64,000 nt of DNA from a virus (taxonomy: Duplodnaviria > Caudoviricetes). The DNA is taken from positions 1,407-65,406 of the IMG/VR virus record IMGVR_UViG_3300013315_000010; one strand, given 5' to 3'. Of the stretch, positions 1,820 to 57,758 are shown in pieces. The stretch's first letter is position 1. The number at the start of each line of letters is the position of its first letter. Under the pieces are notes generated by a model. That model saw only the letters and a program-made list of their open reading frames with translations. It had not been told where the DNA came from and made no database searches. The position numbers and the translations under genes were made by a program.

Positions 1820-1905
1820 CCCCGGGCATTGGGTATGTGGTGAACCCAAGTGGCTGTAAACCACCCGTTTCGGCTGTGCAGGTTCGACTCCTGCCCCGTG
1901 GACCA
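1820..1905 (+). tRNA. atypical tRNA-Tyr(GTA)
   Basis: Acceptor CCCCGGG/CCCGTGG, A73, encoded CCA. Anticodon loop CTGTAAA (GTA at 1856-58). Short variable arm CCG-TTT-CGG; T arm GCAGG-TTCGACT-CCTGC. Confidence 0.8.
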
Positions 1906-1988
1906 ATTAAAATTATTCTTGGGGTGAATACCCCCCTCCCCCTGTGGGACATTTTCAACAAGCAATTGTTACAGGTCCCATGGGATGA

Positions 1989-2022
1989 CCGGCGTGGGGT
2001 TAACCTCCTTCCCCCACGCCGG
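1989..2022 (+). other. 11-bp GC-rich hairpin with anti-SD-like loop
   Basis: CCGGCGTGGGG / CCCCACGCCGG stem; the loop contains ACCTCCTT. Confidence 0.6.
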
Positions 2023-2059
2023 ATTATCTATTTCGAAAAGCGGACATAAACGGGACACC

Positions 2060-2392
2060 ATGAAAAAACTATTTGTCATATTGCTGGTTTTGTTTGTCCT
2101 GTTTGGCCAGGCCCTGGCAGGGAGTCTCTCTCTTGCTTGGGATCATACCGGCACCCAGCCGGATGGGTTCAAACTTTTTATGCGCGAGAGCGGCAGGAGT
2201 TACAACTACTCCACTCCCGTGTGGACTGGGACAGCCAAGACCTGCACAATCACAAACCTTGCGGGTGGGGAAACTTACTTCTTTGTTGTCCGTGCTTTTC
2301 TCGGCACCGAGTCAAGTGTCAATTCAAATGAAGTGACATTCACAACCACACTCCCAGGTAAACCATCAGGGATCGGGTTATCCGATCAATAA
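2060..2392 (+). CDS. secreted fibronectin type III domain protein
   Basis: Signal peptide MKKLFVILLVLFVLFGQALA, then an FN3 pattern (LAWD...FKLF...TITNL...TYFFVVRAF...SNEV). Start is 2060 rather than the track's 1985. Confidence 0.8.
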   Translation: MKKLFVILLVLFVLFGQALAGSLSLAWDHTGTQPDGFKLFMRESGRSYNYSTPVWTGTAKTCTITNLAGGETYFFVVRAFLGTESSVNSNEVTFTTTLPGKPSGIGLSDQ

Positions 2393-2404
2393 CGGAGCAA
2401 GATT

Positions 2405-2668
2405 ATGTTTCTGATTTCGACACCTCAACCAGCAGCTGAGGTTGATCTTTTTGTCATCGACATCGATGGAACTGTACACAACAGTCCTCCCCAGGTTGAT
2501 GGATCTTTGGCTCGGTTGCACTTTGAGCTACCCAGCCTTTCCTTTGGTAACCACACAGCAACAGTTCGGGCCGTCAATGAGTGGGGGGACGGCCAGTGGT
2601 CGGACCCTTTCGACTTCGTCGTACAATTACCCTCCAAAGTTTCTGGGCTTGGATTGTCCGTGGATTAA
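2405..2668 (+). CDS. FN3/Ig-like small protein
   Basis: HTATVRAVNEWGDGQWSDP is an FN3 F-G strand pattern. Its C-terminus LPSKVSGLGLS resembles LPGKPSGIGLS of the upstream gene. Confidence 0.65.
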   Translation: MFLISTPQPAAEVDLFVIDIDGTVHNSPPQVDGSLARLHFELPSLSFGNHTATVRAVNEWGDGQWSDPFDFVVQLPSKVSGLGLSVD

Positions 2669-2708
2669 GGGGATCACCCTTTACCTACCTGAGAGTGTAG
2701 CCCATCGT

Positions 2709-2750
2709 GGGCTGATAGTTTAATTGGGAAAACATCAGTCTGGTCCACCA
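2709..2750 (+). pseudogene. tRNA remnant (acceptor-like stem plus D arm only)
   Basis: GGGCTGA-TA-GTTT-AATTGGGA-AAAC-A-TCAGTCT-GGTCCACCA. No anticodon arm or T arm. Confidence 0.45.
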
Positions 2751-2760
2751 CATAACACAC

Positions 2761-2838
2761 GCTCTCATGGACCAAACAGGCAAAGGTCACGAGACTTTCA
2801 ATCTCGGTGCGGCAGTTCAAGTCTGCCTGGGAGCACCA
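2761..2838 (+). tRNA. tRNA-Glu(TTC)
   Basis: Acceptor GCTCTCA/TGGGAGC, D stem GACC/GGTC, anticodon arm CGAGA-CTTTCAA-TCTCG, T arm GGCAG-TTCAAGT-CTGCC, encoded CCA. Confidence 0.92.
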
Positions 2839-2847
2839 TTAAAATTT

Positions 2848-2925
2848 GCGGGTATAGTCCAACTGGCAGGAGACAGCAGTCTTAGAAACTGAACAGTGGT
2901 GGTTCAAATCCATCTACCCGTACCA
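2848..2925 (+). tRNA. tRNA-Leu(TAG), no long variable arm
   Basis: Acceptor GCGGGTA/TACCCGT, anticodon arm CAGT-CTTAGAA-ACTG, T arm GGTGG-TTCAAAT-CCATC, encoded CCA. Confidence 0.9.
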
Positions 2926-2934
2926 TTCCTTCTT

Positions 2935-3010
2935 GCCACTGTAGCTCACCAGGTAGAGCCCCTGTCTTGTAAACAGGGGGTAGGGGGTTCGAGTCCTCCC
3001 AGTGGCTCCA
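2935..3010 (+). tRNA. tRNA-Thr(TGT)
   Basis: Canonical cloverleaf: acceptor GCCACTG/CAGTGGC, anticodon arm CCTGT-CTTGTAA-ACAGG, encoded CCA. Confidence 0.95.
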
Positions 3011-6828: not shown

Positions 6829-8553
6829 ATGGCAAATGATTTTTCAGGTGACAGTAATTGTGTTGCACTTTATAATCTTGAATCAGGCGCGTTAACCACA
6901 GACTCAAAGGGAAGCAATACTCTAACCGATGTTAACACGGTTGCTGCAAACACAACACAATATAAACAAGGCGCGGCTTCCGCTGATTTCGAGACATCAA
7001 GCACCGAACGTCTTTATAGAACTGATGCAAATCTAAGCACCGACTTCCCATTCAAGTCGGGGCAATCTAACAATTTAATGAGCGTCTGTTTTTGGGCGCA
7101 ATTTGAAGCAGTCACCACGGGAGCAACTTATCTTGTTTGCAAGTATGCTGCTTTGGATAATCAAAGATCCTGGGCAATAAAGCAATACAGTAGTGGGAAT
7201 ATTTTAGCGTCTTTTGGTTATGGCACTTCGTCCTATACTGATATTGAAGTACCTGATCTTGTCTGCAATGTTGGAGGATGGTATCACTTCGGGTTCACTT
7301 ATAATAATACTAATGGAGCTTATTGGCTTAGAGTATATGACGAAGACGCATATACAGTCTATGAATTAACTGGAACATTTGCTAACTATTCTACTTTCAC
7401 GGTTGGCGCGGCGGCATTCACTCTTGGTTCAAGAAGCGATGGTTCAGGCTATCATGACGGCGAACTTGATGAAGTAGTTGTCTTTAACGACATTTTAACC
7501 GCCGATGAAATCGATGATATTCGCAATGGTGTTTATGGTGCTGGATCAGCTGTGTCTGGTTCCATTGCTGAGTCTTTTGGCATCACAGATTCTATTGGCC
7601 GTACAGCAAGATTCGGGGCTGGGATCTCTGACGCACTTGTTATAACAGATACCCAAACCCCATTGGCATTATTGCTCGCCGGTATTTCGGATACCTTGGT
7701 ATTTGTAGATTCTCAATTAACAGGTGTTGCCCACTTTGTGGTAAGTATTGGGGATGTCTTTTCGGTTTCGGATCTTTCAGATAGTTCAAGACGTTTTTAC
7801 TCTGCTTCCAGTGATGTTTTAAGTTTGAGTGAAACGATTATTAAGTTGGCCCAAAGGCTTGGGAACATTTCCGACACTGATGTGTTAACAGATGCTCTGG
7901 CAACCCAGTTAGTTTATCTCTCCAGCATTTCTGATCCTATCCCTCTCATTGATGTTGTTGCTGGGTTTTTAGCTGGTACCCTCATCACAGGTCAAAGCAG
8001 TGACACACTCCCTTTGAACGATTCAATCGCTGTCTATGCCAACTTGTTGATCCAAGCTGTTTCCTACTTACAGATGTTCTGTGCGATTGGTGCTGTTGCT
8101 GATAAGCAAGCGTCTTTATCTGATTCGATGAGCTTGTCTGATGCTCTGTCCATAACAAGGGATCTGATTGGGCTTGCTTCTGATCCATTGGTACTTGGGG
8201 AACTTATTACCAGGTATTCACAAAAAAGTGGAGCAGTATCCGAGCAGTTATCTTTAACAGACTCCACTCCCGTCACAGTGAATTTGCACATTCAAGCCAG
8301 TGACACACTGCAGATCTTGGATACAGCCAACAAGGTTGCCTCCTTCCTCAAGAGTGTTACAGAACAGTTTAGCATCTCTGACTACACCATCGACATCTTT
8401 TCATTAAGAGACAGCCTTATTCTTCATTTTTCTGCCAACAAATTAAATTTTACCTTTGACATTGGGCTTGCCCCCACTACTGGGTTTGCAGCCCTCTCCA
8501 AGGAGAAGAGGTTCACAGCGACACCTCAAATCACAAAATTCACAATTAAGTAA
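6829..8553 (+). CDS. LamG/concanavalin-like domain fibre protein with repetitive shaft
   Basis: N-terminal LamG pattern (SVCFWAQF...WYHFGFTY...GELDEVVVFNDILTADEI) followed by many S-D-x-L-x-L/I-x-D repeats. Confidence 0.75.
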   Translation: MANDFSGDSNCVALYNLESGALTTDSKGSNTLTDVNTVAANTTQYKQGAASADFETSSTERLYRTDANLSTDFPFKSGQSNNLMSVCFWAQFEAVTTGATYLVCKYAALDNQRSWAIKQYSSGNILASFGYGTSSYTDIEVPDLVCNVGGWYHFGFTYNNTNGAYWLRVYDEDAYTVYELTGTFANYSTFTVGAAAFTLGSRSDGSGYHDGELDEVVVFNDILTADEIDDIRNGVYGAGSAVSGSIAESFGITDSIGRTARFGAGISDALVITDTQTPLALLLAGISDTLVFVDSQLTGVAHFVVSIGDVFSVSDLSDSSRRFYSASSDVLSLSETIIKLAQRLGNISDTDVLTDALATQLVYLSSISDPIPLIDVVAGFLAGTLITGQSSDTLPLNDSIAVYANLLIQAVSYLQMFCAIGAVADKQASLSDSMSLSDALSITRDLIGLASDPLVLGELITRYSQKSGAVSEQLSLTDSTPVTVNLHIQASDTLQILDTANKVASFLKSVTEQFSISDYTIDIFSLRDSLILHFSANKLNFTFDIGLAPTTGFAALSKEKRFTATPQITKFTIK

Positions 8554-34651: not shown

Positions 34652-34696
34652 TTGACAATTGATTTTTTATGTTCTATATTATTACGGTATCGTAAT
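34652..34696 (+). promoter_or_regulatory. sigma70 promoter of the integrase with palindromic operator
   Basis: TTGACA-17-TATATT, immediately followed by ATTACGGTATCGTAAT. A weaker operator copy lies at 34621-36. Confidence 0.75.
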
Positions 34697-34768: not shown

Positions 34769-35989
34769 ATGAGTTACCAGGTGGGAAAAAGGGTGAAGGT
34801 CAAGGGTAAGCCCGGCCTTTACATCTATGCCGGGAAGGGGATGACCAACGGACGGCAGCCTCTGTGTTATTATTTCACCTACCGCAAGAGCGGGTATATA
34901 AAGGTGGGGTGGAATCACGAGGGCTTCACTCTCAGCGATGCCGAGAACAAACGCCAGCAATACATCCTCAACCTGAGAGAGGGGATCAACCCTGACGATG
35001 ACAACAAAAAGCAGATCACCTTTAACCAGGGATGGGATCAGTTTATGAACTACGCCAATGAGACCCACATGCCCCGGGTGATGTCCTTCAGGTCTGCCAA
35101 TAAAGTTTATTTCAAAAGAGCCTTCGGCTCCAAGGCAGTACGCATGATCACCAAAACGGACATTGAAAGGTTTATGGGAAAGTTACCGGCACACCTTTCC
35201 CAAAATTACCAGGTGTCCATCCTTACCCGGCTCCGGACCTTTTTCAACCACATGGTTGATGAGGGTGTGTGCCTGGCCAACCCATGCCGTGGAATTAAAA
35301 AGTACCGGCGCAATAACAACACCAAGGAGCGATACCTTGAGCTCCATGAGATTGAGGCCCTGAAAGAATTGTGTGACCATTATATATCCACGGCCAGCAC
35401 CATGGAGGATCGGTTGGCATGGACAGAGACACGAGCCCAGATCCTGCTCATGGTCGAGATGGGGTTGCGCCGGAGTGAGGTCCGCGACTTCCAGCGGGAT
35501 GCAAAAGAACGCAACGTAAATTACAGCCTTCTCTGGGAACGGATCAACTGGGAGACCCGGATGGTCCTGATTGTTGGTAAGGGGAACAAAACCCGGGTGG
35601 TCAAGATGACCTCCCAGGTGGAGGAAGCCTTGCGAACCTTGGGTGTCCAAAAGCGTGGCCCGGTATTTACGGCCACACGATTCTTGCAAATCAAAAGACT
35701 GATCCAAGAGCTTAATATGAACCACGGACTTGACAAAACCAATCCGGATGACCGGCGACATTGGGTATCGTGTCACACCTTCCGACACACCTTCGGCACC
35801 TACGCAGCCCTTAAAACGATGGACCTGCGACTGGTAGCCAAGCTGATGGGACACAGTGTGGCGACCACCACGGAAACATACAGCCACCTGATCAAAGGTG
35901 AGGAAGCGGCAGCGATGGATAAGCTGAGTGAATTCTATTTGACACAACCAGGGGCCAAGGTAATCCCCTTGACCAGCCGTCGATCGTAA
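34769..35989 (+). CDS. int: tyrosine integrase
   Basis: Catalytic R-K-H-R-H-Y residues: GLRRSE, GKGNK, HTFRH, LMGH, TETYSH. N-terminal arm-binding-like domain; RBS AGGAGG. Confidence 0.93.
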   Translation: MSYQVGKRVKVKGKPGLYIYAGKGMTNGRQPLCYYFTYRKSGYIKVGWNHEGFTLSDAENKRQQYILNLREGINPDDDNKKQITFNQGWDQFMNYANETHMPRVMSFRSANKVYFKRAFGSKAVRMITKTDIERFMGKLPAHLSQNYQVSILTRLRTFFNHMVDEGVCLANPCRGIKKYRRNNNTKERYLELHEIEALKELCDHYISTASTMEDRLAWTETRAQILLMVEMGLRRSEVRDFQRDAKERNVNYSLLWERINWETRMVLIVGKGNKTRVVKMTSQVEEALRTLGVQKRGPVFTATRFLQIKRLIQELNMNHGLDKTNPDDRRHWVSCHTFRHTFGTYAALKTMDLRLVAKLMGHSVATTTETYSHLIKGEEAAAMDKLSEFYLTQPGAKVIPLTSRRS

Positions 35990-47330: not shown

Positions 47331-47378
47331 GGCCGGGGGTGTGACCCCCCGGCATAGTTAGTGTTACGATATCTTAAT
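47331..47378 (-). promoter_or_regulatory. hairpin plus operator-like palindrome
   Basis: GCCGGGGG-TGTGA-CCCCCCGGC hairpin; GTTACGATATCTTAAT at 47363-78. Confidence 0.5.
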
Positions 47379-53307: not shown

Positions 53308-53335
53308 ATTATAATTACGATTTCGTAATTGTCAA
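53308..53335 (-). promoter_or_regulatory. consensus sigma70 promoter of the replication operon, with the operator as its spacer
   Basis: Minus strand reads TTGACA-ATTACGAAATCGTAAT-TATAAT. Confidence 0.85.
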
Positions 53336-53339
53336 TGGA

Positions 53340-54158
53340 CTAAGCAGCCTTTTGGGTGATGGGCTTGGGTAAAAACACCCTCAAGCCCATAGTCCTGGAC
53401 ATCTTGACCACCAGCTCGGACACCATCTTGATCATCTCAGTGGTGAGACTCCACGCGGCCCTCTTGCCCGAGGCTTTGTAGGCATCGTCCAGCTTGGTGG
53501 ACACCATCTCCTCGATGAAGTTGATGGCTGACAGGGTGATGTTGTCAAAGTTGTCACGCAAGTTGTCAACCCCAAGATCCTCTTTGAGCTTTTCAGCTGT
53601 CTTGCCGAATAAGGCAAGGTAGGTGATGTTGGTTGCAGTGGCATACCTCCACGCTGCACCAAAGGCACCGTTGCGTCCGATCATAGAGGTGAACCGGTTT
53701 CTGCCAATGGTGCTGATGATCCGGTTATAGATCCAGTCCTCTGGACGACCCTGCTTGCGGTAAAACTCCTGGGCTCTTTCCTGGGCGCGAGTGAGGCCCA
53801 GGTCCGGGTTGGCCATCTCCTCGAACCGTTCCTTGATCACCTGGTTTGCCCAGATGTGGAACTCAGGGCTGAGGTACTTGGCATAGGCAAGGGCAATCTG
53901 CCAGTGAGCCCAGGTGCCCCCCCACCTGCCCATGGCTGTTTTCAAAGTTGATTGTGGATCAACTTTCAACTTTTTAGCGTTGGCCTTGATAAATCGAACA
54001 GTATCCTGTTGGCGTAACCAGAAGGTAGGCTTTCTTGCCAGAATCACCCCGGCATCCGGTTCATCCCGCTGCCAGGCCCTCCACATGTTGGTTAGGTTGA
54101 CCATTTTTGTACCCTGCTGGAACTGAATCTCGAACCCCTCATAAATCATACTGTCCAT
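53340..54158 (-). CDS. KilA-N domain protein (antirepressor-like)
   Basis: VNLTNMW, WLRQQDT, GGTWAHWQIALAYAKYLSPEFHIW. Confidence 0.9.
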   Translation of the reverse strand: MDSMIYEGFEIQFQQGTKMVNLTNMWRAWQRDEPDAGVILARKPTFWLRQQDTVRFIKANAKKLKVDPQSTLKTAMGRWGGTWAHWQIALAYAKYLSPEFHIWANQVIKERFEEMANPDLGLTRAQERAQEFYRKQGRPEDWIYNRIISTIGRNRFTSMIGRNGAFGAAWRYATATNITYLALFGKTAEKLKEDLGVDNLRDNFDNITLSAINFIEEMVSTKLDDAYKASGKRAAWSLTTEMIKMVSELVVKMSRTMGLRVFLPKPITQKAA

Positions 54159-54219: not shown

Positions 54220-55236
54220 TTAATGATCTTGTGAGCGTAAAATTTCCTTGAGGATGATCCGCGCCAGCATCTCATCCCAGTACCCCTGATCAATATGCTT
54301 GGGCAAAAGAGAGGCTGTGGCCAGGACCTCAACCTGGTCCATCAACGACTCCAAAGCCGGGGCAACCTCGGTAATAAAGTCCATCTCACCTGCCTTAATT
54401 TTCCGCAGGGTGGTGCTATCCCATAGTGGGTACACCAGGTCACCCGTTTTAAAAATTTCCTCCATCTGCCTGGCAGCCCGAAACGCATGACTTACCGCTT
54501 TCCAGTCAATCCCCTGGTTCGCTTTTGCCAACTTCGCCCGGTGCCCATAGCCCTCTTGTACTCTCTCCAGGGATCGGAGTATTTCAGATACTCGAATCGT
54601 TTCGTGAAATCTCTTACCGCAGACTTCAAACGTTCGATGAGGGTTGAGATCTGATGGATCAACCTTATGCAGATGATCACCTCCAGGAAGATAATTCCAA
54701 ACATCACCAAGTTTAGGGGAATTCCCTCCATGTGCTTTTTCAACCTCCTTTAAAAAAGAGATAACCCGATCAATGGCATCCAGTCGAGAACCCTTGATGC
54801 CATACTTTGCCGCTTGTTTCCGGGCATACCCTACAAACGCCCTCATGTCTGTGCTGTATGCCTTGGAACGGTTGGCATGCAGGATCTCCCAAATGGGGGT
54901 GGACACATTGCACTGGCCCGGTTTGATGTGAATCATATCCATGGACACGGTATCCCCCTGGCAGAGCAGGTGGAGAAAATAGTGCAAGCTGTACACCTCG
55001 ATGTCGATGTCATCCGGGGCATTCTTGGCTCCCTCTGCCGTGGACTTCTTGCTCCCCCACGAGTAAGTCCGTGGGATCTTGCCGGTCAGGATCTGCTGCA
55101 CTGTAGGCATGTATACCCCCTTGAAATCTCGATCCGATGCAGGGGTATCTGTGCCATACAGGTGAGACCCAAATGGGGCGAACATGATCAGCTCCCCAGG
55201 CAACCCCAACCTTTCAATCAGTTCGTGCTTTTGCAT
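54220..55236 (-). CDS. RlaP-like Pol-beta nucleotidyltransferase (T4 nrdC.11-like)
   Basis: FGSHLYGTDTPASDRDFKGVY, YSLHYFL, GKQAAKYG-like motif (RKQAAKYG), DWKAVSHAFR. Confidence 0.85.
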   Translation of the reverse strand: MQKHELIERLGLPGELIMFAPFGSHLYGTDTPASDRDFKGVYMPTVQQILTGKIPRTYSWGSKKSTAEGAKNAPDDIDIEVYSLHYFLHLLCQGDTVSMDMIHIKPGQCNVSTPIWEILHANRSKAYSTDMRAFVGYARKQAAKYGIKGSRLDAIDRVISFLKEVEKAHGGNSPKLGDVWNYLPGGDHLHKVDPSDLNPHRTFEVCGKRFHETIRVSEILRSLERVQEGYGHRAKLAKANQGIDWKAVSHAFRAARQMEEIFKTGDLVYPLWDSTTLRKIKAGEMDFITEVAPALESLMDQVEVLATASLLPKHIDQGYWDEMLARIILKEILRSQDH

Positions 55237-55290
55237 TATTTACACCTCATCTTTCAATCAACTTGTGCTTTTGCATTATTTACGCCTCAT
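55211..55290 (-). repeat. 40-bp tandem duplication of a gene junction, creating the 9-aa ORF MQKHKLIER (55247-55276)
   Basis: 55211-50 and 55251-90 are identical at 36/40 positions. Confidence 0.9.
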
Positions 55291-56095
55291 CAATGATTGT
55301 TGTGATCTGCTCCTCCGTGTACTCCTTGGGGTCCTTGGGAGTGTAGATCCTCTTTACGGGAATGCCAAAGGATTGATACCGCTTTGTCCTGGCCAAACTT
55401 TCCTTTGCCTTATCAGCGTCCAGCCACAAGTAAATAGTGGTATAGACTTTGGCCAGATCCATCACCAATTGGTCCGGAACGTAGGACCCCAACAACCCGA
55501 TACTGTCCATAACCCGGTTGACCTTGATGGCACTGATCATATCCTCTACCAGGACAACCTCATCGGTTCCGGGCTCTTTATTTGGCTGAAAGAAGACATT
55601 TTGCCGGGTGGCCGACCGTTGGTTGATCCACTTTTGATGCCCAGGAGTAAAGGATCGGCCTTGCCAATAGATTGGCTTTCCATCCCTGTCAAACACAGGT
55701 ATTATCAGCCGATAGTTATCGGCCAAATATATCCGATAACGGTTGATCTCAGCGTCTGTGATACCATACTTGAGTAGCCAGGCTATGGCATGCTCTTGTG
55801 TTCTGGCTATCGAACGCTCTGCTCGGCAGGGTGGTGGGAGTGTGACCTCTGATACTACAGGGCTTGTGTGATCCCTTTGGGTAAACTGGACGACCTCCCT
55901 GGTGCTCAGCCCATCCAACCCACGAAACCCAGATGCTCCACATCGGTGGCACCGGTACTTCCACCCAGCAGCGGTGCGGGTGACCACCAGGCACGGTGAT
56001 TTTTTCTCGCTGCACCCCTCGTGCAGGTACCGCACCGGCACCCCTTCGGGAGTGCTGGTGTCAAAATACTGCTGATCATCAATTCTCTCGCGCAC
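55280..56095 (-). CDS. DNA primase (Zn ribbon plus TOPRIM)
   Basis: HEGC...CHRCG; YWQGR; VLVEDMISA; LWLDAD. Confidence 0.88.
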   Translation of the reverse strand: MRERIDDQQYFDTSTPEGVPVRYLHEGCSEKKSPCLVVTRTAAGWKYRCHRCGASGFRGLDGLSTREVVQFTQRDHTSPVVSEVTLPPPCRAERSIARTQEHAIAWLLKYGITDAEINRYRIYLADNYRLIIPVFDRDGKPIYWQGRSFTPGHQKWINQRSATRQNVFFQPNKEPGTDEVVLVEDMISAIKVNRVMDSIGLLGSYVPDQLVMDLAKVYTTIYLWLDADKAKESLARTKRYQSFGIPVKRIYTPKDPKEYTEEQITTIIDEA

Positions 56096-56228
56096 GGCTA
56101 TCCTCCTCTACCTGCACAGTGGGAGCACTTGTGCGGATCTTCCACTTGGACCACCCGTAGCACTCGGCACACTGGTCTGTGTGGTCAACCGTCCAGATGC
56201 CGTTCTCACAATTTGCACATCTTTTCAC
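56079..56228 (-). CDS. small Zn-ribbon-like protein
   Basis: GTG after GGAGG; CANC...CAEC. An operator copy (56239-54) abuts the RBS. Confidence 0.55.
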   Translation of the reverse strand: MKRCANCENGIWTVDHTDQCAECYGWSKWKIRTSAPTVQVEEDSRAREN

Positions 56229-56262
56229 GCTTTCCTCCTTTACGATTATGTAATGATGAGCC

Positions 56263-56302
56263 CAAAAAAACCCGGGGGAGAGAAACCTTCCTCTCCCCCG
56301 GT
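56263..56302 (-). terminator. intrinsic terminator
   Basis: CCGGGGGAGAG / CTCTCCCCCGG stem with a T7 tail on the minus strand. Confidence 0.7.
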
Positions 56303-56320: not shown

Positions 56321-56512
56321 TTACAGCATAAGTGTGACCTCGGTTGCGAGGTCCCCTGTTTCCTTGACAATCTTTTCCATACGGGCCTTCACCGGCACAC
56401 TCATCTCGGTCCATAGGACATACTTGTCGGGGAATTCAACATCTTTGCCGACCGCAATGGATCGGCCCGGTACAATTTCAACGTGCACTCCATTTTTAGT
56501 AACAAGGACCAT
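56321..56512 (-). CDS. hypothetical protein
   Basis: MVLVTKNG... after AAGGAGG. Confidence 0.55.
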   Translation of the reverse strand: MVLVTKNGVHVEIVPGRSIAVGKDVEFPDKYVLWTEMSVPVKARMEKIVKETGDLATEVTLML

Positions 56513-56525
56513 AGGACCAGCCTCC

Positions 56526-56858
56526 TTAGCGTAGGAGCACCAGCTTCCGCATGAGCTCCTCACCCTTTTTGGTTAGTGATACAGAAAAAATCCGAACATC
56601 ATCCCTGGACCCATCGGTTCGCAGCAACCCCATAATCTCGTGTTTGCCAGTCTCCGGGTTGAACACGGTCTCCTCACGGAGCTTATCAACGCTCCGGCTG
56701 ACCGTGGCCCGGGTGGTTTTGAACCTCTTCTCCAGTTCAGGCATTGTGATGCCGGGTTCAGCCATTACAGCCAGTAGAATGCCGACTTGTAGCAGCGTCA
56801 TGTTGCCAACCTCTGCGGTAAGCAGCCTGACCATGTTTTGCCCACTTTTGATCTCCAT
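56526..56858 (-). CDS. MarR-like winged-HTH regulator
   Basis: MTLLQVGILLAV...PGITMPELEKRFKTTRATVSRSVDKL...DDVRIFSVSLTKKGEEL. Confidence 0.85.
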   Translation of the reverse strand: MEIKSGQNMVRLLTAEVGNMTLLQVGILLAVMAEPGITMPELEKRFKTTRATVSRSVDKLREETVFNPETGKHEIMGLLRTDGSRDDVRIFSVSLTKKGEELMRKLVLLR

Positions 56859-57110
56859 TCACATCCTCCTTTATGGCGAGCGAGAGTGCCCAGCTACAGC
56901 TGGAATATGTATTACATATAACACTTTTTCGCCATAACGCAATAGCAATATTGCGCGGTTATGTGGTACGCCATTTATGGGAGATCGAGATTGGATTAAA
57001 TGTAATACCTTTAAAGCATTATCCTCCTCGCATCAGTGCCTCCCCCTTTACAAAAAAATTCCCATCTGATCTATTACAATTACAAATTTTGCACAATGCT
57101 CAAAAAGTAC

Positions 57111-57677
57111 TTAATACCTGTCCCGGAACTCAAAGAAGCGTAACAGGACCTCCAATCCTGCCCGGGTTGTTCCGTTTGGCAGTTTATGTCGGATGCTGTA
57201 ACGGTGGTTTGATACAGTCCGCTCAGACATCCCTCGGCGTGATGCGATATCCTTTGTGGATAGGCCACAGTGTATGTCAGCAGCAATCAATAACTCGGTT
57301 TTTGTCAGCGTGTTAGGCAATGGTTGCAGACTGCCAGGAGCAGGATGGGACACTGTGGCAACAATGTAATGGTACTTTTTTGTCACCCGTCCGGCCTCTG
57401 CCCTCCATACACCCCACACCCCCCCACGGGATCGTAACAGCATGGTGAGCATCCCGCTGTATCCAGCGGACTTCAGCCGGGCGAGTGCACTCCTATAAAG
57501 GGGCTCGTGTTGTGGAGCCAGTTCTGCGATCAACCGCTCCCCGATAACCGCGCCAAACCGTAGCGCGGTGGGGTTTGCCCATATCACCTTTCGGGTTTCC
57601 GTTCTGACCAACACGATGGCAAAGCCTGAATCCAACAGCCTGGAGTGTAGCCACTTTGGGACAAATCTATTAACCAT
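57111..57677 (-). CDS. PAS domain plus LuxR-type HTH transcription factor
   Basis: PAS pattern AIVLV...KVIWANPTA..FG..VIG; LuxR HTH LTKTE...GLSTKDIA...MSERTVSNHRYSIRHKL. Confidence 0.82.
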   Translation of the reverse strand: MVNRFVPKWLHSRLLDSGFAIVLVRTETRKVIWANPTALRFGAVIGERLIAELAPQHEPLYRSALARLKSAGYSGMLTMLLRSRGGVWGVWRAEAGRVTKKYHYIVATVSHPAPGSLQPLPNTLTKTELLIAADIHCGLSTKDIASRRGMSERTVSNHRYSIRHKLPNGTTRAGLEVLLRFFEFRDRY

Positions 57678-57758
57678 AGCACACCTCCATATGAAAGGGG
57701 TAAGGCCCCACAGGTGAGCCTTACCCCCAAAGGATACTACACAAAACCCCCGTGTAAA

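Follow-up and report, generated by a model that had tools for sequence, protein, structure and literature searches.

What kind of regulator does a phage obtain from a small gene that joins a sensor-like domain to a LuxR-type DNA-binding domain, and could such a protein connect the phage to the physiology of its host? The gene in question, here called luxR, lies on the minus strand of a 64,000-nucleotide stretch of viral DNA (Duplodnaviria; Caudoviricetes; positions 1,407 to 65,406 of the IMG/VR record IMGVR_UViG_3300013315_000010), which was analysed over its whole length and is called the window. A sequence-only reading of this DNA had proposed a sensor of VqmA-like architecture and a candidate small-molecule lysis-lysogeny switch. 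We found that luxR encodes a protein with a C-terminal LuxR/GerE helix-turn-helix (HTH) and an N-terminal domain that very probably has the PAS fold, so both parts of the architecture proposed for this early-region gene hold. The resulting PAS-LuxR protein has few relatives, appears unrelated to VqmA beyond its general layout, and probably acts on the control region of an adjacent marR gene.

The luxR gene starts with an ATG that has GGAGG 8 nt upstream, and the gene called there by the Joint Genome Institute (JGI), on the source contig, is identical to this open reading frame (ORF). The C-terminal part of the protein matched the Pfam family GerE (PF00196) over residues 123-166 with 36.7 bits, compared to a cut-off of 23.5 (E 3.2e-9). 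In the AlphaFold2 (AF2) model the HTH reached a predicted local distance difference test score (pLDDT) of 87-98, and Foldseek superposed it on the DNA-binding domains of GerE, NarL, LiaR, EL222 and VqmA with root-mean-square deviations (rmsd) of 1.3-2.3 Å. Its best sequence match in the PDB was EL222 (E 0.005). Its tetrahelical fold and a profile score that exceeds the gathering score place the domain in the LuxR/GerE (NarL/FixJ-type) HTH family. The protein had no Pfam match to the acyl-homoserine lactone (AHL)-type autoinducer-binding domain (PF03472). A short, proline-rich linker (residues 112-122) separates the HTH from the N-terminal domain.

The N-terminal domain was read as PAS because of its relatives, one of which carries a curated PAS domain, because of the ESM and AF2 models, and because of the order of its structural elements. 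The relative in question, P0013, aligns over the full length of the protein with 30% identity and carries PF00989 (8.8e-10) and TIGR00229 (6.4e-12) in addition to GerE; the nearest relatives of the HTH are often PAS+GerE proteins themselves (P0051, P0059 and P0030). A profile of the N-terminus gave ten matches among the PDB sequences, all of them PAS. The ESM Atlas model of residues 1-113 had TM-scores of 0.67-0.72 to all ten of ten PAS-domain clusters. The full-length AF2 model, made from a 19-sequence alignment, was unusable in the N-terminus (pLDDT 30-60), and Foldseek on it matched the HTH only. A domain-only AF2 model was made from a six-sequence alignment (pLDDT 63, predicted TM-score 0.53). 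The topology of this model (H8-16, E22-24, E30-34, H36-40, H55-70, E75-82, E88-97, E103-106, H being helix and E strand) follows, at middling confidence, the PAS order of A-beta, B-beta, helices, G-beta, H-beta and I-beta. Foldseek searches with the domain model returned 28 matches at E<=1e-3, and all of the best 50 by rank were PAS, LOV or haem-PAS domains, headed by EcDOS (E 1e-4, 16-18% identity) and including FG214 (8.6e-4). VIA-align gave Z 9-10.2 over 104-113 residues, with PAS/LOV only among the matches listed, and Z 8.9 over 104-115 residues with the LOV-HTH factor EL222. ESM, AF2 with Foldseek, and VIA, all working on models of middling confidence, returned the PAS fold, in agreement with the PAS-like domain of the sequence-only reading. 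A weak match of residues 8-100 to UDP-galactopyranose mutase (E 0.02) was considered spurious, since the structure and profile searches give PAS instead.

When 1.8 billion cluster representatives were searched exhaustively with phmmer, only two full-length relatives emerged: P0013 (196 aa), on a 233-kb contig, and P0056 (221 aa, 25% identity), on a 1.5-kb contig. Both have the same PAS+GerE layout, and the recognition-helix motif RTV(E/S)NHRY is common to them and to the query. P0013 (L002:10001-10591, ENA) lies in a replication module, between gyrB and hypothetical genes; among the proteins encoded around it are DnaB, a phage-type primase (phrog_47), GyrB, NAD ligase, CobS/CobT-like proteins that match PHROGs strongly (phrog_249 and phrog_1576) and Pol III alpha. 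The gene content of this contig looks like that of a jumbo phage, in which case two or more unrelated phage genomes would carry PAS-LuxR regulators. No lysogeny gene was present in the 20 kb examined near P0013. Word-indexed homologue searches, whether started from the protein, a two-sequence profile or the PAS region of P0013, revealed no more N-terminal relatives, and an IMG/VR scan with the PAS-LuxR profile revealed none. A metagenome scan produced 44 loci, all matching at the level of the HTH, and searching the ORFs of these loci with a hidden Markov model of the N-terminus added no members; the N-terminal profile scan of 185,579 species genomes was empty. By these searches the PAS-LuxR protein is close to an orphan, from a tiny, uncharacterised, phage-associated lineage. 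Among the more distant matches, P0030 (L052:3001-4344) is a bacterial protein of 447 aa with a tandem (PAS-GerE)x2 fusion, both PAS copies of which match the N-terminal profile.

The references for the comparison with VqmA were VqmA-phage (VP882 gp56) and the divergently oriented Qtip (gp55) next to it, both taken from the phage collection. BLASTP aligned the HTH alone (32% over 57 aa), and hhalign with a four-sequence profile aligned 55 columns, again restricted to the HTH. PHROG 27555 is the VqmA-phage family; VP882 gp56 scores 6.8e-98 over its positions 1-203, and the PAS-LuxR protein scored E 2.2e-4, confined to profile positions 125-179. The HTH superposes on that of VqmA (PDB 7DWM for VqmA-phage and 6IDE for the host protein) at 1.6-1.7 Å. 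No VqmA chain was among the best 50 VIA matches listed, which says nothing either way. The pocket for the autoinducer DPO in Vibrio cholerae VqmA is formed by F67, F99 and K101 (bioRxiv 10.1101/2019.12.19.881847); these residues could not be mapped because the PAS domains were not alignable by BLASTP, hhalign or the PHROG profile. Sequence and profile comparison aligned the HTH alone, and of the VqmA-like architecture the two-domain layout stands while homology beyond a generic HTH does not. Judged by sequence, the PAS-LuxR protein is not a VqmA homologue and has only the generic PAS plus LuxR-HTH architecture in common with it.

The two phages also differ. The known VqmA-phage family is restricted to VP882-like linear plasmid phages (PMC12324486), and no DNA or protein similarity to these phages was detected around the luxR locus in the phage collection (TelN itself was not searched for). 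VP882 is a TelN linear plasmid phage, whereas the phage described here is integrative and has Pol A. In VP882 the qtip gene is divergent and adjoins the receptor gene, while here both neighbours of luxR are co-directional, the flanking spacers contain no plausible small ORF, and no CI/Cro-like protein was found among ten early small ORFs in Pfam and PHROG scans. The absence of a recognisable qtip-like ORF and cI had been remarked on in the sequence-only reading, as had the independence from VP882, and these observations agree with both.

The source record is a 65.4-kb virus with completeness rated 98%. The plus strand of the window carries structural genes and a tyrosine integrase, already noticed in the earlier reading, and the phage is regarded as temperate and integrative because of this integrase. 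The minus strand carries an arm that runs from approximately 63 kb down to 36 kb with early, replication and RNA-repair genes, including primase, a DnaB-like helicase, Pol A, a class II ribonucleotide reductase, RtcB and an RNA ligase. The closest Pol A of cultured phages shares only about 31% identity (in phages that infect Methylophilales, Alcaligenes and Puniceispirillum), which gives no basis for the anaerobic host that had been thought probable. A 574-aa ORF at 6829-8553, an unverified candidate for the large terminase, had no tblastn match in the phage collection; the DNA around the luxR locus had no blastn match there, and tblastn gave chance or HTH-level matches only. IMG/VR scans returned no relatives of the MarR protein or of the DUF932 protein encoded upstream of luxR, and the species-genome scan with the integrase returned none. 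These comparisons set the phage very far apart from those in culture. A cluster at 1820-3010, near the left end, comprises four tRNA genes (Tyr-GTA, Glu-TTC, Leu-TAG and Thr-TGT). In addition, a 40-nt tandem duplication with 90% identity at 55211-55290 repeats the ribosome-binding site (RBS) and the first 9 codons of a gene for an RlaP-type nucleotidyltransferase; in the upstream copy, which overlaps the stop of the primase gene, a 9-codon mini-ORF (MQKHKLIER) would lie just before the real start (MQKHELIER).

The luxR gene is the first of a compact unit (Table 1).

Table 1. Positions of the features discussed, numbered along the window; residue numbers refer to the PAS-LuxR protein.
Feature	Position	Strand	Evidence or remark
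Weak sigma-70-like match TTTACA-16-TATCCT upstream of luxR	57731-57758	-	Consensus scan, 9/12
Hairpin between DUF932 gene and luxR	57697-57727	-	Repeat search; RNA fold -24.2 kcal/mol, z -4.5
Gene of PAS-LuxR one-component regulator (luxR), 188 aa	57111-57677	-	ORF list, RBS, Pfam GerE
Predicted PAS-fold sensor/dimerisation domain, residues ~8-111	57345-57656	-	AF2 topology, Foldseek, VIA, ESM model, link through P0013
LuxR/GerE tetrahelical HTH, residues ~123-180	57138-57311	-	Pfam PF00196, AF2, Foldseek
luxR-marR intergenic region, 252 nt, AT-rich, candidate local control region	56859-57110		Palindrome and heptamer scans
18-bp palindrome CGCAATA-N4-TATTGCG	56938-56955		Palindrome scan; unique in window
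15-bp palindrome ATATGTA-T-TACATAT	56905-56919		Palindrome scan; unique in window
MarR-type winged-helix regulator (marR), 110 aa, co-directional, downstream of luxR	56526-56858	-	Pfam, PHROG
Small ORF after marR, 63 aa (JGI) or 80 aa from first GTG	56321-56563	-	ORF list, JGI call
Strong intrinsic terminator closing the luxR-marR-ORF unit	56272-56301	-	13-bp stem, 9 GC pairs, U7 tail
16-bp operator copy, 1 mismatch	53314-53329		Spacer of minus-strand TTGACA/TATAAT promoter ahead of helicase/replication genes
16-bp operator copy, 2 mismatches	47363-47378		Adjoins hairpin
16-bp operator copy, 1 mismatch	34681-34696		Just downstream of integrase promoter -10
Tyrosine integrase	34769-35989	+	Pfam PF00589, E 6.1e-16

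The upstream hairpin is stable and has a 13-bp stem as folded, with 10-bp perfect arms, and only a short UUU follows it. The promoter-like match was the one found in the region, compared to 2.4 expected from shuffles, and is not significant alone. The spacer between luxR and marR holds three of the eight TGTAATA copies in the window (56910, 57001 and 57072) together with the window's only GCAATATTGC; it contains no convincing small ORF, and no Rfam match was found around the gene. The neighbour that had been called MarR-like proved to be so: it matched PF12802 (MarR_2) with 38.4 bits, compared to a cut-off of 27 (E 1.4e-9), and phrog_9665, a transcriptional regulator family (1.2e-9), although with 110 aa its product is short for a MarR protein. 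The small ORF that follows had no Pfam, PHROG or PADLOC match, and PADLOC gave HTH-level noise only on LuxR and MarR. The closing terminator folds at -27.5 kcal/mol (z -3.3). This succession of hairpin, luxR, spacer, marR, ORF and terminator looks like a self-contained regulatory cassette.

The regulon of a shared 16-bp operator that the sequence-only reading had described was recovered: the palindrome ATTACGATATCGTAAT has three sites with at most 2 mismatches in the window, compared to 0.09 expected. The site ahead of the helicase genes is embedded in a promoter (53308-53335, minus strand) with perfect TTGACA and TATAAT elements, whose 16-bp spacer consists wholly of the operator and which follows directly after the gene of a KilA-N protein. 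None of the three strong sites is near luxR. Apart from LuxR, MarR and the KilA-N protein, no DNA-binding regulator could be recognised in the minus-strand arm. The 7-2-7 geometry of the operator suits dimers of the NarL/GerE type, as known for NarL sites, and would suit MarR dimers equally well. A degenerate copy (12/16) abuts the GGAGG and GTG start of a 49-aa CxxC...CxxC zinc-ribbon ORF (56079-56254); this ORF lies directly behind the terminator of the cassette and overlaps the start of the primase gene. The KilA-N domain protein (53340-54158) also matches the PADLOC candidate defence models PDC-S13 (1.2e-17) and PDC-S22 (1.7e-11).

Upon the gene, domains, fold class, neighbours, repeats and cassette observed here, we propose a mechanism in which signal dependence, oligomeric state and targets would follow EL222, FG214 and VqmA. 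The protein is probably a one-component transcription factor in which PAS governs dimerisation or release of the HTH, and which targets the marR control region and possibly the 16-bp regulon. It would be a cytoplasmic factor with the PAS domain (residues ~8-111) connected through the proline-rich linker to the HTH (~123-180); by analogy with EL222, FG214 and VqmA, PAS would control dimerisation, free the HTH, or do both. Effector release and dimerisation have been described as the mechanism of PAS-HTH factors in FG214 and EL222 (bioRxiv 10.64898/2026.03.15.711900) and in VqmA (bioRxiv 10.1101/2019.12.19.881847). A dimer of the phage protein may then switch promoters of the phage by binding to a palindromic site. 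The marR control region, with its 18-bp and 15-bp palindromes, is the most likely first target because luxR sits together with marR in a compact unit of the early arm. A second candidate target, which would be shared with MarR, is the 16-bp operator of 7-2-7 geometry found at the promoters of the integrase and of replication.

Several results weigh against this mechanism or against the PAS assignment on which it builds. No Pfam PAS model reaches E 0.1 on the PAS-LuxR protein, and the curated PAS profiles of Pfam and NCBIfam gave no match at E<=0.1 or 1. The PDB profile matches were marginal (E 0.08-1.5) and partly driven by P0013, and both structure models were middling, with the AF2 values given above for the domain and for the full-length N-terminus. 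No neighbour is in common between the luxR locus and the loci of P0013, P0056, P0021 and P0030. The operators could not be attributed to PAS-LuxR over MarR or the KilA-N protein. Finally, no cofactor or ligand signature was identified in the PAS domain. Its sequence offers no cysteine for a LOV adduct, and HMMER aligned the haem ligand His77 of EcDOS with Tyr61, in a weak alignment of marginal E. The sole cysteine of the protein, C137, is inside the HTH and residues 1-136 have none, so the domain is not a LOV-type photoreceptor. His57, four residues upstream of Tyr61, is not conserved in the relatives.

These last results lead to the rival that survives best, in which PAS has no ligand and serves as a dimerisation module only, making the protein a constitutive early regulator, for instance in the timing of middle genes or in acting with or against MarR. 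For many PAS domains no cofactor is known. The lack of a cofactor signature, the domain without cysteine and the non-conserved haem-PAS histidine are as this rival predicts, the domain is minimal (~100 aa), and the position in a co-directional early operon is what one would expect of a regulator of timing. The sequence, however, cannot separate such a protein from a sensor, and the PAS-HTH factors that have been studied (EL222, FG214 and VqmA) all respond to signals. We regard a ligand-less PAS as unlikely but credible. EL222 of Erythrobacter litoralis (PDB 3P7N and 8A5R) is likewise a minimal one-component PAS(LOV)-LuxR HTH factor, and its mechanism, in which the PAS sheet keeps the HTH sequestered in the absence of a signal and the protein dimerises on DNA once it is signalled, may serve as a template; the phage protein differs in having no adduct cysteine, no flavin-binding motif and no predicted J-alpha linker helix. 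FG214, a haem PAS-HTH switch (PDB 10JX; bioRxiv 10.64898/2026.03.15.711900), has the same architecture, but the axial histidine of FG214 and EcDOS is not demonstrably conserved in the phage protein. Streptomyces PimM, PteF and CfaR have a two-domain layout and a similar size and are dimeric activators with no known ligand (PMC9774167). By contrast with the phage protein they are regulators of actinobacterial biosynthetic clusters, and none was among the 56 phmmer matches.

The second rival is the one from which this work departed: a switch of the VqmA type, in which the protein would sense a host autoinducer or another small molecule and trigger prophage induction, as VqmA-phage does via Qtip. 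Like VqmA-phage, the protein is phage-encoded, falls in the range of ~190-235 aa, combines an N-terminal PAS domain with a C-terminal LuxR-type tetrahelical HTH in an identical layout, and comes from a temperate phage. Moreover, the lack of a recognisable CI/Cro leaves room for an unusual decision circuit, and the sensory transcription factor modules of phages are diverse in sequence (PMC10432266). Nevertheless, homology with VqmA-phage stops at the HTH in BLASTP, hhalign and PHROG 27555, no divergent small ORF adjoins the gene, the phage is integrative and unrelated to the VP882-like linear plasmid phages, and the closest relative, P0013, lies in a jumbo-phage-like replication region lacking lysogeny genes over the stretch examined. 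The linkers also differ, a long loop in VqmA and a short proline-rich segment here. Quorum sensing does not follow from the layout alone, because PAS+LuxR proteins are widespread, as EL222, FG214 and the PimM-type regulators of Streptomyces show. The AHL-type LuxR receptors that phages carry together with an XRE protein (Apop and ARM81ld; PMC10432266) likewise place a LuxR-HTH sensor beside a second small HTH regulator, here MarR; however, their sensor domain binds autoinducers and is not PAS, and their counter-oriented small-ORF antirepressor is absent here. A VqmA-type switch is thus doubtful at best.

It is very improbable that the luxR-marR cassette is a moron expressed in lysogeny, which would rewire host genes from the prophage in the way of LuxR solos or CsgD-like regulators. 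The strong hairpin and strong terminator bracket the unit, with its own upstream and internal non-coding regions, as in many morons, and none of the three strong operator sites is nearby; on the other hand, the cassette is co-directional amid early and replication genes, is neither at a genome end nor beside att, and has the GC content of its neighbours. Its spacer palindromes are unique to the locus in the phage, pointing to local control, and no host target can be proposed. Last, an unrelated alpha/beta domain that the predictors forced into a common fold is extremely improbable, since the missing Pfam PAS match, the middling pLDDT and the best VIA Z of 7-8 that, according to VIA, is common for unrelated models are set against homology to the curated PAS of P0013, which is independent of any model, against the agreement of two different predictors, and against hundreds of PAS chains and nothing else among the matches listed, with Z up to 10.2 across nearly the whole domain.

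The one-component PAS-LuxR factor proposed here would gain wider importance if the luxR-marR cassette were the decision and immunity module of a phage without CI/Cro. The PAS domain would then sense a host metabolite or redox state, and PAS-LuxR, alone or with MarR, would occupy the 16-bp operator within the spacer of the replication promoter and across the start of the integrase promoter. This is quite improbable; if true, integration and replication would respond directly to host physiology with no antirepressor in between, which would be a second, independently evolved sensory route into the lysis-lysogeny decision, with a diverged version in a jumbo phage. Sensory transcription factors of phages (VqmA-phage, and AHL-LuxR with XRE) are the known route for sensing host signals beyond DNA damage, and those described to date belong to a small group of linear plasmid phages that infect Vibrio, Aeromonas and their allies. 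The PAS-LuxR protein is a candidate and not a demonstrated switch; with 188 aa it is small and tractable in vitro. The independent origin of this PAS-LuxR regulator, carried by a very novel integrative phage and distantly related to a protein of a jumbo-phage-like genome, suggests that phages may repeatedly recruit PAS one-component sensing.

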